Below, in pieces: positions 1-5,430 of a stretch of DNA of 10,904 bases (the first letter of the stretch is position 1; each line of letters begins with the position of its first letter). The notes under the pieces are model-generated. The model was not told the origin of the DNA. It did no database searches and was given only the letters and a program-made list of their open reading frames with translations. The DNA lies in contig NC_001263.1 of NCBI RefSeq assembly GCF_000008565.1, forward strand, positions 1 to 10,904, read 5' to 3'. The position numbers and the translations under genes were made by a program. Origin of the DNA: Deinococcus radiodurans R1 = ATCC 13939 = DSM 20539 (lineage in GTDB: Bacteria; Deinococcota; Deinococci; Deinococcales; Deinococcaceae).

Positions 1-1179
1 TCACGCGAACTCTGGCCTCGGTTCAAGCGGCGGTGAACTTTCCGGGTGATGGGCCAGGGCAGACATGCCCCGTAACGGCCTCAGAAGGCCCCTTAAACGC
101 GCAGCGTGACCATGACCGCCATATACCCGCCTCCCCCACCTACGGGCGCGGAAAATGGCGGGGCTGGTGGACCCGGAGAACAGCAGCTCGGCGTCTCCGT
201 CAATCGGGCCCAGCGCATCGAGCACATGGCGAGCGTTGAAGGCGAGGCTCATCGCCTGCTCGGTGCCGCCCTGGGTGACGCTGAGCGTGTCCTGAGCGCG
301 GCCATAGTCGCCCTCCGCAGCGAGGCGCAGAGTGCCTTCGGACACCAGAAACTCGACGCGGTTGTTGGCGTTTTTGTCGGCCAGCACGGCCACACGGTTG
401 ACCGCTTCCTTGAGGGCGGTGGCGGGCAGTGTCACCTGAAGTTTGATGTCCTTGGGAATGACCCGCTCGTAGTCGGGAAAATCACCGTCGAGCAGCTTGA
501 GGTTCATCTTCACGCGGTCGGTGGTCACGGTGAGCATGCCGTCGCCGTAGGTGAACCGCGCCTCGCCGTCCTTGAGCACGCGAATCAGTTCGTCCACGCT
601 GCGGGCGGGAATAATCAGGTTTTTGCCGTCGCCGCTCGCCGGAAAGTCGCGGATAGCCACCCGGTAACCGTCGGACGCCACCACGCGGGCGCTCTCGCCG
701 TGGTGCTCAAGCTTAATGCCGCGAAACACCGCCTGAAACGCCTCGTTGCTTGCCGCGTAGCGCACGCTGGAAAAGGCGCGGGACAGTTCGCCGCCGTCCA
801 GGCTCACATCGGCCTGTGCGGGGAAAGAGAGTGGCGGGTACGCTTCGATGTCACCGGTCTGGAGCTTGAAATCTGAGCCGCCCGAGCGCACCGAGAGTTC
901 CTGGCCGCTCAGTTCGAGTTCGACGAGCTCACCGCCGAGGTTGCGAACGATTTGCGCGAACAGGTGCGCCGGCACCACGAAGTTTTCGGGCTGCTGCACC
1001 TCGGCAGGCACGAAGCACGACAGGTCGATTTCCAGGTTGGTGCCGCTCAGCGTCAGGCCACCTTCCGACGTTTCGACCTTCAGCGCCGTCAGCAGCGGAT
1101 TGCTCGAACGGCTCGGAATCACACGTTCGAGCAGGCCCAGGCCCTCGTTCAGGGTCTTTTTGGTGACATTGGCTTTCAT
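1..1179 (-). CDS. dnaN: DNA polymerase III beta subunit (sliding clamp). As read, the frame is disrupted near 144-147, and the conserved C-terminus continues in another frame to a stop at 93-95.
   Basis: The 393-aa ORF (GTG 1182, ATG 1179) has a beta-clamp-like sequence throughout ([14 protein letters not shown]...[11 protein letters not shown]). After FRA it becomes an Arg/Gly/His-rich tail unlike any clamp. The adjacent minus-strand frame reads [16 protein letters not shown] then stop (TAA at 93-95), a typical clamp C-terminus. It lies downstream of dnaA and oriC on the same strand. Confidence 0.9.
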
Positions 1180-1187
1180 CACCGGCC

Positions 1188-1293: not shown

Positions 1294-1738
1294 TTATCCA
1301 CAGAACTTATCCACAACCTGGGGAAAACTTCGTGCTGGACATGAAATTGTTCTGAGCTTCGGGTCTGGAATCTGAAGAACGATCAGTCCTGAGACGCCTC
1401 ACGTTGGATCTCAACTCGGAACCTCCTTTTGGAATTTTCCAGAGTCCTTTGTGGAAGGCCCAAGGTCACCTGGCCTATCTGTTAACTGTTCTTCTTAAAA
1501 AATAAAAACAGTAGTAGCAGTAGTAGGGCCTGTGGATACTGTGGAAAACTCACCTTGAAGCCGTCCCAGAGGACAAAAGTTTTCCACAGAGGGGGTGTGG
1601 ATAACCCCGAAAACCTGATGGATAAGCTGTGGATAACTTGGGGGGTTATCCACAGGGCATTTTTAGGGGCAAGTTATCCACAATTTTATCCACAGGATTT
1701 TGGCACTTATCCACAGGATATCCACAGGTTTTTCCACA
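1294..1738. other. oriC: Chromosomal replication origin (oriC): 13 DnaA boxes in the dnaA-dnaN intergenic region
   Basis: Perfect TTATCCACA at 1294, 1307, 1646, 1674, 1686 and 1707 (+ orientation). Perfect TGTGGATAA at 1596 and 1628 (- orientation). One-mismatch boxes at 1531 (TGTGGATAc), 1540 (TGTGGAAAA), 1580 (TTTTCCACA), 1718 (aTATCCACA) and 1730 (TTTTCCACA). The region lies between dnaA and dnaN and is markedly less GC-rich than the flanks. Confidence 0.92.
1476..1530. other. AT-rich candidate DNA unwinding element with a DnaA-trio-like array (TAG TAG CAG TAG TAG) and a GGCC cluster abutting a DnaA box
   Basis: Positions 1476-1526 are about 27% G+C by hand count (tatctgttaactgttcttcttaaaaaataaaaacagtagtagcagtagtag). 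The trinucleotide array is at 1512-1526 and GGCC is at 1527-1530. The adjacent DnaA boxes at 1531-1539 and 1540-1548 follow directly. Confidence 0.5.
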
Positions 1739-1903: not shown

Positions 1904-3304
1904 TTACGCCCCGACTTCTTCCTCCTCTTCCTTGCCCTGAATCCGGTTACGCAGGGTGTTCACCGTGGCGGCAAGTTCGGGGTCTTTGCCCATCTGTTCG
2001 GTGATTTTGCTCACGGCGTGCATGACGGTGGAATGGTCGCGTCCGAAAAACTGGCCGATTTCGGGCAGCGAGTGGTCGGTCAGTGCGCGGATGAGGTACT
2101 GCGCCACCTGCCGGGGCACCACGATGTCGCGGGCGCGGCCCGAGCCGCGAATCAGGTCGGGGGTGGTGCCGTAGTGCGCGGCCACCTGCCGCAACACGTC
2201 GGTCATCTCGACCTTGGCTTCCTGCGGAGCGAAGACGTTGCTCAGGGCCTTGGCCGCTGCCGCCCGCGAAAAGGGCACATTGTTGAGGCTGGCGAAGGCC
2301 ACCACCCGCATCAGCGCCCCCTCCAGTTCGCGGATGTTGCTGGTCACCTGCCGGGCGATGAGTTCGAGCACCTCCTGCGGAATGGTGATGTGGCCCTGCT
2401 CGGCGTTCATCTTCAGAATCGCCACGCGGGTTTCGTACTCGGGCGATTGGATGTCGGTAATCAGCCCCCACTCGAAGCGGCTTCGCAGGCGGCCTTCGAG
2501 TGTCTGGATGTCCTTGGGGGGCCGGTCCGAACTGAGGATGATCTGCTTGTTGCTCTCGTAGAGCGCGTTGAAGGTATGGAAAAACTCCTCCTGGGTGCGC
2601 TCCTTGCCCGCCAGAAACTGGATGTCGTCGACGAGCAGCAGGTCCACCGAGCGGTAGCGGTTGCGAAACTGCGTGGTCTTGTCGTCGCGGATGGCGTTGA
2701 TGAGTTCGTTGGTGAACGTCTCGGTGGACACGTACTCGATGCGCTTTTCGGGAAAGCGCTCAGCGAGGTAGTGCCCCACCGCGTGCATCAGGTGGGTCTT
2801 GCCGAGGCCCACGTCCCCATAGATGAACAGCGGGTTGTACGCCTTGCCGGGCGACTCGGCCACCGCGAGCGCCGCCGCGTGCGCGAGGTTGTTGTTCGGG
2901 CCGACCACGAAGTTCTCGAAGGTGTATTTGGGGTTCAGCGTCTTGCGGTTGTCGCCGGGGGTGCTTGGGGGAGGCGTGGGCGCGGCTTTGGTTTTGGGCG
3001 TTGGGGCCGCCGCTTCGGGCGCGGGTGGGGGGTCGTTGGGGAGCAGCAGGGCGTCTTGCGCGGCGGGCAGCACCTGAAACTCGACCTGCGGGTGCTCGGC
3101 GCCCAGCGAGCGCAGCGCGGCGAGCAGCAGTTCGAGATAATGGTCGCGGAACCAGTCCTTGGTAAAGGAGTTGCGCACGCCGAGCAGCAGCGAGCCCTCC
3201 TGCACGCCGAGCGGTTTGACCGGCGCGAACCAGGTCGTGTACTCCAAGTCGGAGACGTTTTTGCGCACGTAAGCGAGGACGTCGGCCCAGATTTCCTGTG
3301 AGAT
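1904..3304 (-). CDS. dnaA: Chromosomal replication initiator protein DnaA. The 5' end is extended to an ATC codon; the first canonical start is GTG at 3268.
   Basis: AAA+ Walker A ([10 protein letters not shown]), Walker B (LLLVDDIQF), and a C-terminal DnaA-box-binding HTH region ([12 protein letters not shown]). The frame stays open upstream of GTG 3268 and encodes (I)[11 protein letters not shown], which matches the conserved DnaA domain-I N-terminus. A GGAGG sits at 3314-3318 (minus strand), 9 nt before ATC 3302-3304. Confidence 0.9.
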
Positions 3305-3490
3305 AGTGCTCCCCCTCCCCCGTTCGGCGGGGAAACTTGCCCCGCAAAAGTCAGGGTCAGGGTAGCAGACGCGGTGAAGCGGGCTAGGCGTTGGGAGCGC
3401 AAAGCGAAGTCATGGGTACTGGAGACCCCTCACCCCTTGCTTCGCAAGGCCCTCTCCCCCTAGTAGAGGGTCAAAAGATGAAAAAGCCCC

Positions 3491-3517
3491 CTCCTGTGCG
3501 GAGAGGGATGAATGAAG
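3491..3517 (-). terminator. Candidate intrinsic terminator downstream of ddrC
   Basis: The minus strand reads CCCTCTCC-gcaca-GGAGGGGG (8-bp stem with one G-U pair) followed by CTTTTTCATCTTTT, and it starts about 38 nt after the ddrC stop. Confidence 0.55.
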
Positions 3518-3555
3518 CGATGGAAGATAGGGGCAGCTTCTTTATGGCGCTTGTC

Positions 3556-4251
3556 TCAGCCTACGCGCTGCACCTGGCCCGCCCGTTCCCAGCTCTGGCG
3601 CTCGCTGCGGGCTACCTGTTCGTGGAGGGTGAGGATGGCTGCGTTGCCCCGCGCTTCGCTTTCCTGAATGGCGCGGGCGGTCACGGTGTCGATGTAGGCC
3701 AGCCGCAGCAGTTCGGCGCTCGTCAGGCCGTCGCGGGTGGCCTTGACGCCGCGTTCCTGACGTACCGACGCGCTGTCCTTGCCAAGGACGGTGCGGTTGC
3801 TGATGCTGCCGAGCTGACCGTAGACCCGGCCCTCGCCACCGTGCCGGGCGACGGTGGCGAGCAGTTCGCGCCGGGCGCCAGTGCTTTCCAGTCGGGCAGC
3901 GAGCCAGCGCCGGGCGTCAGGCTCGGGGTTGCGCTCGGCAATCTGGGCAGCCACGCGCACGTCGCCCTGCATGGCGCGGGCGAGCAGCTCCCGCGCCCGC
4001 TTCTGCCAGCGCCGGGCTTCGGGGGTGTCGAGGGCGAAGGCAAGCGCCACGAAATCGGGCACGCTCACGGCGGCCTCGGGTCCGGCGCCGAAGTCGCGGT
4101 ACGTCTCGGGCAGGCCGTGTTCGACCAGCGCCGCTTCCCAGCTTTGGGTGAGCCCGAGCTGCTGCTGGGCGGTGGGGGCGTGAAGCAAACCGTCCGCGCT
4201 GACAGGCAGCCGCACGGAGCCGAAATTGAGGGTCAGCGGAGCGTTCTTCAT
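3556..4251 (-). CDS. ddrC: DNA damage response protein C (Deinococcus-specific DNA-binding protein), 231 aa
   Basis: The ORF has plausible protein composition, sits immediately upstream of dnaA, and is preceded by an RDRM palindrome. Its length and position match my recollection of the locus next to dnaA in D. radiodurans (ddrC). No general domain motif is recognisable by eye. Confidence 0.75.
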   Translation of the reverse strand: MKNAPLTLNFGSVRLPVSADGLLHAPTAQQQLGLTQSWEAALVEHGLPETYRDFGAGPEAAVSVPDFVALAFALDTPEARRWQKRARELLARAMQGDVRVAAQIAERNPEPDARRWLAARLESTGARRELLATVARHGGEGRVYGQLGSISNRTVLGKDSASVRQERGVKATRDGLTSAELLRLAYIDTVTARAIQESEARGNAAILTLHEQVARSERQSWERAGQVQRVG

Positions 4252-4257
4252 ACAGAT

Positions 4258-4266
4258 ATTCTAGCA
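4258..4266 (-). promoter_or_regulatory. Extended -10 promoter element (TGcTAGAAT) of ddrC; predicts a leaderless mRNA
   Basis: The minus strand reads tgTGcTAGAATatctgtATG. Only 6 nt separate the -10 hexamer from the ATG (4249-4251), and there is no Shine-Dalgarno. Confidence 0.6.
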
Positions 4267-4270
4267 CAGA

Positions 4271-4287
4271 TTATGTTTTTGACATAA
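4271..4287. promoter_or_regulatory. Radiation/desiccation response motif (RDRM), the predicted DdrO repressor operator
   Basis: A 17-bp palindrome, TTATGTttttgACATAA, with perfect TTATGT/ACATAA half-sites. It lies 20-36 nt upstream of the ddrC ATG and overlaps the -35/spacer region of the ddrC promoter. Confidence 0.8.
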
Positions 4288-4386
4288 CAAATCAGCACGG
4301 AAGCAGGGCTATTTTTCAGTGTGCAGGACGGAGAAAATTATCTTAAAGTTCGCTGAAGGCCACCCCCTGCCCTTAGAGTGGTCGTT

Positions 4387-5430
4387 ATGTCCTATCTGTC
4401 CGAACTGCGCGCCGTGTGGGGCCACCGCGCCCTGCCCGCCGCAGGCGTGAGTGTCCTCTTGCAAGACGAAACGGGCCGCGTCCTGCTTCAGCGCCGGGGC
4501 GACGATGGGCAATGGGGAATACTCGGTGGTGGACTGGAACCGGGCGAGGATTTTCTGATTGCCGCTCATCGCGAGCTCCTTGAGGAAACGGGGCTGCGCT
4601 GCCCGAACCTGCGCCCGCTGCCGCTCTCCGAAGGGTTGGTGAGTGGGCCGCAGTTCTGGCACCGTTATCCGAACGGCGACGAGGTGTATCTGGTCGGCCT
4701 GCGAACGGAAGGCACTGTGCCCGCTGCGGCGCTGACGGATGCTTGCCCCGACGACGGCGGCGAGACGCTCGAACTGCGCTGGTTCGCTCTGGACGATTTG
4801 CCGCCGCTGAACACCAACATCAACCGCGTGAGCATGAATGTGCTGCGAGCCCGGCGCGGGCTGCCACCTTTGCCCCTGCTGGACGTGCCCTCGCCCCCGC
4901 CGCCCGGCGACTGGCTGCGCGACCTGCGGGCGCTGGTGGGCTCGCGGCCCCTGATAGCCCCCGGTGCCAACGTCGCCGTGACGAACGAGCGCGGCGAGGT
5001 GCTGCTCCTGAAACATGCGGGCACTGGGAACACAGTCACTGGGAAATGGACGCTTCCCGGCGGCAGCCTCGAACCCGGCGAGTCGTTCGCCGAGTGCGCG
5101 GCGCGGGAGCTGCACGAGGAAACGGGCCTGCGGGCGTCCCGCCTCGTTCCAGTGGAGTTGTTCGCCGGGGCCGAGTACCGCTTCACCTCCCTCAACGGCG
5201 ATGTCATAGACAACATTTCCGTGCTGTTCCGGGCCGAGGACGTGCAGGGTGAATTGGCCCTCGACACCGCCGAAAGTCACGGTGCGGCGTGGTTCGCGCC
5301 GGACGCCCTGCCGCCCGCAGACGAGCTGAGCGGGCCGCTGATTCGGGCGAAGGTAAGGCGCTGGCAAGAGCTTGAACCCAGTCCAAATGAGGGCGCGTGC
5401 CCCGGAGCGGCGCCGCATCGCTTATGCTGA
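4387..5430 (+). CDS. Tandem (double-domain) Nudix hydrolase, MutT/Nudix family
   Basis: There are two complete Nudix boxes (GX5EX7REUXEEXGU): GGLEPGEDFLIAAHRELLEETGL (nt 4528-4596) and GSLEPGESFAECAARELHEETGL (nt 5062-5130). Each is embedded in a similar ~160-aa repeat. The ATG at 4387 is preferred over the GTG at 4378. Confidence 0.88.
   Translation: MSYLSELRAVWGHRALPAAGVSVLLQDETGRVLLQRRGDDGQWGILGGGLEPGEDFLIAAHRELLEETGLRCPNLRPLPLSEGLVSGPQFWHRYPNGDEVYLVGLRTEGTVPAAALTDACPDDGGETLELRWFALDDLPPLNTNINRVSMNVLRARRGLPPLPLLDVPSPPPPGDWLRDLRALVGSRPLIAPGANVAVTNERGEVLLLKHAGTGNTVTGKWTLPGGSLEPGESFAECAARELHEETGLRASRLVPVELFAGAEYRFTSLNGDVIDNISVLFRAEDVQGELALDTAESHGAAWFAPDALPPADELSGPLIRAKVRRWQELEPSPNEGACPGAAPHRLC

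Follow-up and report, generated by a model that had tools for sequence, protein, structure and literature searches.

We find that positions 1489-1548 of the start of the Deinococcus radiodurans R1 chromosome I record very probably form the basal unwinding system (BUS) of the replication origin oriCI, and we put the probability of this reading, with the full mechanism set out below, at roughly 0.88. The window in which the analysis was made (the whole stretch of DNA, 10,904 nucleotides in length) contains here the correct architecture of DnaA boxes, DnaA-trios and AT-rich DNA, the lowest duplex stability, and an element that is conserved genus-wide. The module itself is already known, since the sequence was predicted at these coordinates and tested in vitro in 2021, and the reading is supported by the present data; what is new here is the constancy of the six-trio array and of its phase throughout the genus, its position beside the weakest duplex of the region, and the finding of an extra motif that flanks it. 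As an element for DnaA-dependent origin opening in a deep-branching, polyploid and radiation-resistant bacterium, the module supports the view that the box/trio arrangement is ancestral in bacteria, a point already made in 2021 with the same sequence.

The window comprises the first 10.9 kb of the chromosome I record and has a G+C content of 65.6%, in line with the background of about two-thirds G+C given in a first-pass annotation made from the letters of the sequence. The oriCI of D. radiodurans R1 chromosome I has been placed at 1183-1903, with 13 DnaA boxes (Maurya et al. 2021, PMC7988490). We likewise count 13 boxes in the 10.9-kb window that match TTATCCACA perfectly or with a single mismatch, all of them inside 1294-1738, and because both the coordinates and the box count equal those published for oriCI, we identify the window as the oriCI-containing start of the record. 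The features on which the argument draws are as follows.

1-1182, minus strand: dnaN, the DNA polymerase III beta-clamp gene, with three Pfam DNA_pol3_beta domains.
1183-1903: oriCI spacer between dnaA and dnaN, 721 bp, 48% G+C vs. 65.6% for the window.
1294-1302 and 1307-1315, plus strand: pair of perfect DnaA boxes between dnaN and the AT tract, oriented towards the tract.
1475-1488, minus strand: genus-conserved distal motif CAGTTAACAGATAG, extending to 1474 (G), with consensus CAGnWAAnAGATAGG.
1489-1508: AT-rich unstable tract, 20 nt, 10% G+C, the predicted DNA unwinding element.
1497-1508, plus strand: four further 3'-NAN-5' trios (AAA AAA TAA AAA), in a register that runs into the AT tract.
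1509-1526, plus strand: six in-phase DnaA-trios, 5'-CAG TAG TAG CAG TAG TAG-3', the predicted single-stranded DNA (ssDNA) binding track.
1527-1530: G+C gap GGCC, 4 bp, between the proximal box and the first trio, read directly.
1531-1539, minus strand: trio-proximal DnaA box GTATCCACA (plus strand TGTGGATAC), one mismatch to TTATCCACA.
1540-1548, minus strand: upstream DnaA box of the tandem pair, TTTTCCACA (plus strand TGTGGAAAA), one mismatch to TTATCCACA.
1580-1738, both orientations: distal box cluster on the dnaA side, made up of nine DnaA boxes with no or one mismatch.
1904-3268, minus strand: dnaA (Pfam Bac_DnaA, E = 1e-76).

Read on the plus strand, the module has the order TTCTTCTTAAAAAATAAAAA CAG TAG TAG CAG TAG TAG GGCC TGTGGATAC TGTGGAAAA. 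The tandem boxes adjoin directly; both are minus-strand boxes whose 3' ends face the trios. The first trio is separated by 13 bp from the upstream box and by 4 bp from the proximal box. Minus-strand GGCC is followed by CTA CTA CTG CTA CTA CTG at 1526-1509, and outward from the box the trios of the opposite strand read 3'-GAT GAT GAC GAT GAT GAC-5' (four GAT, two GAC). Tandem Repeats Finder describes 1509-1526 as a perfect (CAGTAGTAG)x2, which means that the six trios are in register. Under the loose 3'-NAN-5' pattern the array would extend to 10 trios (1497-1526), and AAA AAA TAA AAA are indeed trios 7-10 in the published parse (PMC8287927 Table S1); since these four trios lack sequence conservation, however, the effective array is probably one of six trios, as judged from the sequence comparison.

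The first-pass annotation had proposed a minus-strand order of box, GGCC, trios and AT-rich DNA, which is read directly from the sequence and matches the published basal unwinding system, and the TAG TAG CAG TAG TAG element it described is found as TAGTAGCAGTAGTAG at 1512-1526 (plus strand), followed by GGCC at 1527-1530 and the box at 1531-1539. Its assignment of the trios to the plus strand also agrees with the published system. All five of its trios and its one box are present, but the count has to be extended to six conserved trios, and the second tandem box at 1540-1548 had gone unnamed. Similarly, its figure of about 27% G+C for the flank holds for 1476-1526 (27.5%), but this stretch includes the trios, and the pure AT tract at 1489-1508 has only 10% G+C.

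By nearest-neighbour free energies, duplex stability over the whole window is lowest at 1494-1508, 1492-1516 and 1475-1514 for segments of 15, 25 and 40 bp, respectively, such that the weakest duplex in 10.9 kb abuts the trios. The pattern TAGTAGNAGTAGTAG, with up to two mismatches allowed, gave 0 matches in each of 200 dinucleotide-preserving shuffles of the window. We additionally ran a BUS-style scan, written after the published search rules of PMC8287927, over both strands of 1183-1903; its sole match was the 1509-1526 array (in shifted registers), and it found no further BUS next to either the 1294-1315 or the 1718-1738 boxes. Rfam returned no match at a family's gathering score for the module, the one sub-threshold match (to a miRNA) falling on inverted boxes only, and the open reading frames that overlap the module are only 23-52 aa long.

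The same sequence has been the subject of published work. In Table S1 of Pelliciari et al. 2021 (NAR, PMC8287927), the entry NC_001263 / ORI10010007 for D. radiodurans R1 lists a BUS at 1548..1496, parsed 3'->5' as AAAAGGTGT, CATAGGTGT, CCGG and GATGATGACGATGATGACAAAAATAAAAAA, with a spacer of 13, 10 trios and a score of 26; reversed, this string is identical to window positions 1497-1548 on the plus strand. The rules of that survey ask for three or more consecutive NAN trios that begin no further than 16 bp from the better-conserved box, which may itself carry up to two mismatches, and across its 2070 genomes the spacer mode was 13 bp (PMC8287927). Core origins of this kind also favour 3'-GAT-5' trios, most strongly in the trio nearest the box, and have a G+C gap of about 4 bp. 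All of these features are present in D. radiodurans, whose 13-bp spacer falls on the mode, as are the location of oriC by dnaA, the orientation of the boxes, the unstable AT element and conservation in orthologues.

Experimentally, the D. radiodurans scaffold oligonucleotide used in that study is CAGTAGTAGCAGTAGTAGGGCCTGTGGATACTGTGGAAAACT (PMC8287927), which corresponds to window positions 1509-1550 on the plus strand. Purified D. radiodurans DnaA (DrDnaA) released the labelled complementary strand of this cognate scaffold in vitro (PMC8287927 Fig. 4), and strand separation was lost with the boxes-MUT and with the trios-MUT scaffold, as well as with the DrDnaA variants R264A (arginine finger) and I190A (ssDNA-binding) (PMC8287927). 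The measured Tm of the trios-MUT scaffold was lower than that of the wild type (46.8 vs. 49.8; PMC8287927), so that the lost unwinding does not come from a more stable duplex. The assay format was a pre-nicked scaffold of three oligonucleotides rather than a supercoiled oriC (PMC8287927). DrDnaA was equally active with ADP and ATP, as were the H. pylori and S. elongatus proteins, and its AAA+ crosslinking was undetectable; the authors note that such complexes may be distinct from the Gram-positive, B. subtilis type (PMC8287927). Binding of DrDnaA to the proximal box sequence GTATCCACA has been measured by EMSA, with a Kd of ~4.2-4.4 uM (PMC7988490). Our literature search for Deinococcus found no in vivo or supercoiled opening-site mapping, no strand-specific ssDNA-binding measurement and no origin mutagenesis.

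To follow the module across the genus, we retrieved the dnaA-dnaN loci of 11 other Deinococcus species via their DnaA homologues (79-95% identical to the query) and the contigs that carry them, and we counted columns over 12 species, that is, D. radiodurans and these 11. Each of the 12 spacers contains exactly one module, in the same relative place. The upstream box is TT[AT]TCCACA and the proximal box GT[AT]TCCACA in 12/12 origins, and the gap is GG[C/A/G]C in all 12 (3/4 columns invariant). Invariant columns make up 16/18 of the boxes and 15/18 of the trios, as compared with 2/28 in the upstream and 0/41 in the downstream flank. The central base is kept in every one of the 72 trios, which on the bound strand comprise 60 TAG, 7 TAA and 5 CAG; trios 1, 4 and 5 are constant, and the proximal trio is GAT in 12/12 species. 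The first-pass annotation had named conservation of the trio phase in related origins as a check on its reading, and the array is kept in phase in 11/11 other Deinococcus origins; as the array is conserved in orthologous origins, the reading stands on this point. The 20-nt AT tract behaves differently, with a G+C content of 10-25% in 12/12 species and only 4/20 columns invariant: here, and in trios 7-10, it is composition (A+T richness) that is conserved, not sequence.

Beyond the genus, contigs were scanned with the DnaA protein as query, which gave 80 loci spread over many phyla, one of them in a Deinococcales metagenome-assembled genome (MAG). A box / 4-bp gap / trio layout after dnaA was present in 12/80 of these other-phyla loci, mostly in Firmicutes. 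In the Deinococcales MAG, whose DnaA is 63% identical, the 2.5 kb to each side of dnaA contain no consensus DnaA boxes, in contrast to every Deinococcus locus, and this lineage may have its origin elsewhere or use divergent boxes.

Taken with the biochemistry, this arrangement suggests how the origin would work. Domain IV of DnaA would bind the tandem boxes TTTTCCACA and GTATCCACA (1548-1531), and from this platform DnaA protomers would reach across the 4-bp GGCC gap, so that their AAA+ domain III could engage the plus-strand 5'-TAG-3' (3'-GAT-5') trios from 1526 down to 1509. Extension onto the plus-strand trios is suggested by the design of the scaffold and by the dependence of unwinding on the trios and on the residue changed in I190A, and the plus strand would accordingly be the one that carries the DnaA oligomer. 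Capture or stretching of this strand would then open the unstable AT tract at 1489-1508; stability and conservation together suggest that this is also the site of opening in vivo. The replicative helicase would subsequently be loaded at the opened AT tract. The distal box clusters at 1580-1738 and 1294-1315 would raise the local DnaA concentration, a role that is probable by analogy with the genetics of B. subtilis incC (PMC6669920). DrDnaA needs its arginine finger, yet in its activity with ADP and its undetected crosslinks it departs from the ATP-dependent filament of the B. subtilis type.

The basal unwinding system of B. subtilis oriC incC (Richardson 2016; Richardson 2019, PMC6669920; Pelliciari 2021, PMC8287927) is among the closest known systems. 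It has the same architecture (DnaA-box#6/#7 and DnaA-trios; PMC6669920, PMC8287927), and the order of elements is also the same: dnaA, distal boxes, tandem boxes, CCGG gap, trios, AT tract and dnaN, with the trios on the same strand. The B. subtilis scaffold and the D. radiodurans segment are identical at 33/41 positions and have TAGTAGGGCCTGTGGAT in common, and their BUS scores are 25 and 26, respectively (PMC8287927). Both systems depend in vitro on their boxes and trios as well as on the arginine finger and the ssDNA residue of DnaA (PMC8287927). They differ in the spacer, which is 13 bp in D. radiodurans and 12 bp in B. subtilis because the D. radiodurans proximal box is a full 9-mer; in the boxes, both of which carry one mismatch in D. 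radiodurans while the upstream box of B. subtilis is perfect; and in the protein, since DrDnaA, unlike its B. subtilis counterpart, works with ADP and gives no detectable crosslinked oligomer (PMC8287927). That boxes and trios are essential in vivo has been shown for B. subtilis (PMC6669920) and H. pylori (PMC8287927) only.

Within the same phylum, the Thermus thermophilus oriC BUS also has tandem boxes, a CCGG gap and GAT GAT GAT, although three trios are listed there vs. six conserved (ten NAN) in D. radiodurans, and the CCGG gap is common to D. radiodurans, B. subtilis and T. thermophilus (PMC8287927 Table S1). The H. pylori oriC2 BUS, with TAG TAA CAG TAG TAG beside a GGG gap, has the type of array seen in D. 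radiodurans, and its unwinding in vitro is likewise ATP-independent (PMC8287927), but its boxes are divergent. At E. coli oriC, the DNA unwinding element consists of the 13-mers L/M/R beside box R1, so that a DnaA box flanks an AT-rich element as it does here. There, DnaA binds one unwound strand. The E. coli BUS is weak (3 trios, score 7; PMC8287927 Table S1), and E. coli oriC, unlike D. radiodurans oriCI, is not adjacent to dnaA. E. coli-type 13-mers GATCTnTTnTTTT are not enriched in the D. radiodurans sequence, where 9 matches (at most 3 mismatches) compare with 6.9 expected, and 49/200 shuffles gave at least 9.

Other explanations of the conserved block have to be weighed against the BUS reading. 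One is that it is mainly transcriptional, serving as a DnaA-regulated dnaN promoter/operator or in control of dnaA-dnaN read-through, with unwinding taking place elsewhere. The module does sit in the dnaA-dnaN spacer, on the sense strand of both genes, only ~25-40 nt separate the end of the AT tract and distal motif from the dnaN ATG in the nine short-spacer species, and DnaA is also established as a transcription factor (e.g., PMC13438810). Against this, 1476-1548 contains no sigma-70-like promoter by a consensus scan, whose single promoter-like hit is at 1217-1188 (minus strand), just before dnaN; the D. radiodurans module lies ~290 bp from dnaN and is nevertheless conserved base for base; a promoter leaves the strict 3-nt periodicity with its invariant central base unexplained; and unwinding in vitro is trio-dependent (PMC8287927). 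We therefore regard a mainly transcriptional role as improbable.

Opening could also be driven by topology, with box-bound DnaA wrapping or bending the DNA until the weakest duplex melts and the TAG array serving as a mere spacer of low stability. Nowhere in the window is the duplex weaker than in the AT tract, as this account would have it, and DrDnaA neither needs ATP nor gives detectable AAA+ crosslinks (PMC8287927), which leaves a classical ATP filament on ssDNA putative. But the trios keep their sequence, next to an AT tract that keeps only its composition; the trios-MUT scaffold has the lower Tm and yet is not unwound; and the ssDNA-binding variant I190A is inactive (PMC8287927). Opening by topology of this kind thus seems hardly likely, and about as doubtful as the transcriptional role. 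That the array is a chance trinucleotide microsatellite without function might be argued from its short perfect 9-nt duplication, a possible slippage product. Conservation already refutes this idea: a microsatellite would vary in copy number, whereas all 12 species, with DnaA proteins only 79-95% identical, have six trios in the same phase and position. The 200 shuffles, moreover, yielded 0 matches. The BUS reading thus remains the one that we favor.

In addition to the module itself, the genus comparison revealed the distal motif CAGTTAACAGATAG, which marks the dnaN-side edge of the AT tract, 20-21 nt past the sixth trio, and is outside the published BUS. Its consensus CAGnWAAnAGATAGG occurs exactly, and once each, in 10/11 other Deinococcus loci (9/15 columns invariant), and in 0/80 of the dnaA loci from other phyla. 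The motif might be an origin element, or else a dnaN promoter or 5'-UTR element, given that its end lies about 25 nt from the dnaN ATG in the species with short spacers. That it is an additional sequence-specific element of the Deinococcus core origin is a tentative proposal, which we consider rather unlikely on present evidence. If it is true, the motif could mark the boundary of the bubble, the entry of the helicase or its loader, or the binding site of a regulator, and, together with a DrDnaA that tolerates ADP and is crosslink-negative, it would set the Deinococcus opening complex apart as a genuine variant of that in B. subtilis.

The remaining boxes differ in how widely they are shared. 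The box order of the distal cluster is conserved across Deinococcus, whereas the two boxes at 1294-1315 are confined, among the 12 species, to D. radiodurans and D. wulumuqiensis. Both have a dnaA-dnaN spacer of ~720 bp, vs. 360-450 bp in nine other species, and the ~330 extra bp lie between the unwinding tract and dnaN and hold both of the 1294-1315 boxes; in this pair of species there are consequently boxes to either side of the AT tract. Inside the distal cluster, 1627-1655 (plus strand) contains an inverted pair of perfect DnaA boxes, forming a palindrome with a 13-bp stem, CTGTGGATAACTT-GGG-GGGTTATCCACAG. This palindrome, which was matched by the terminator scan and by a weak Rfam miRNA hit, is probably just the convergent box pair, and we rejected the terminator-like hairpins at 1627-1655 and 1601-1583 as merely inverted DnaA boxes. 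A further terminator-like hairpin lies at 1878-1862 (minus strand), after dnaA, and no terminator-like site overlaps the module.

We also made observations on the surrounding genes. The dnaN open reading frame is 393 aa long here, vs. 360-362 aa in other Deinococcus loci (386 aa in D. reticulitermitis), and its Pfam domains stop near residue 345; the extra length may be a C-terminal extension, or it may come from a frameshift or a different stop in this record. Elsewhere in the window, 4250-4350 is the second least stable stretch (~48% G+C), located between the open reading frames 3391-4287 (plus strand) and 4309-5418 (minus strand), both of which are without a Pfam match. A TTGACA at ~4279-4284 lies upstream of a possible plus-strand open reading frame at 4378-5430, and the true gene there may therefore be on the plus strand.
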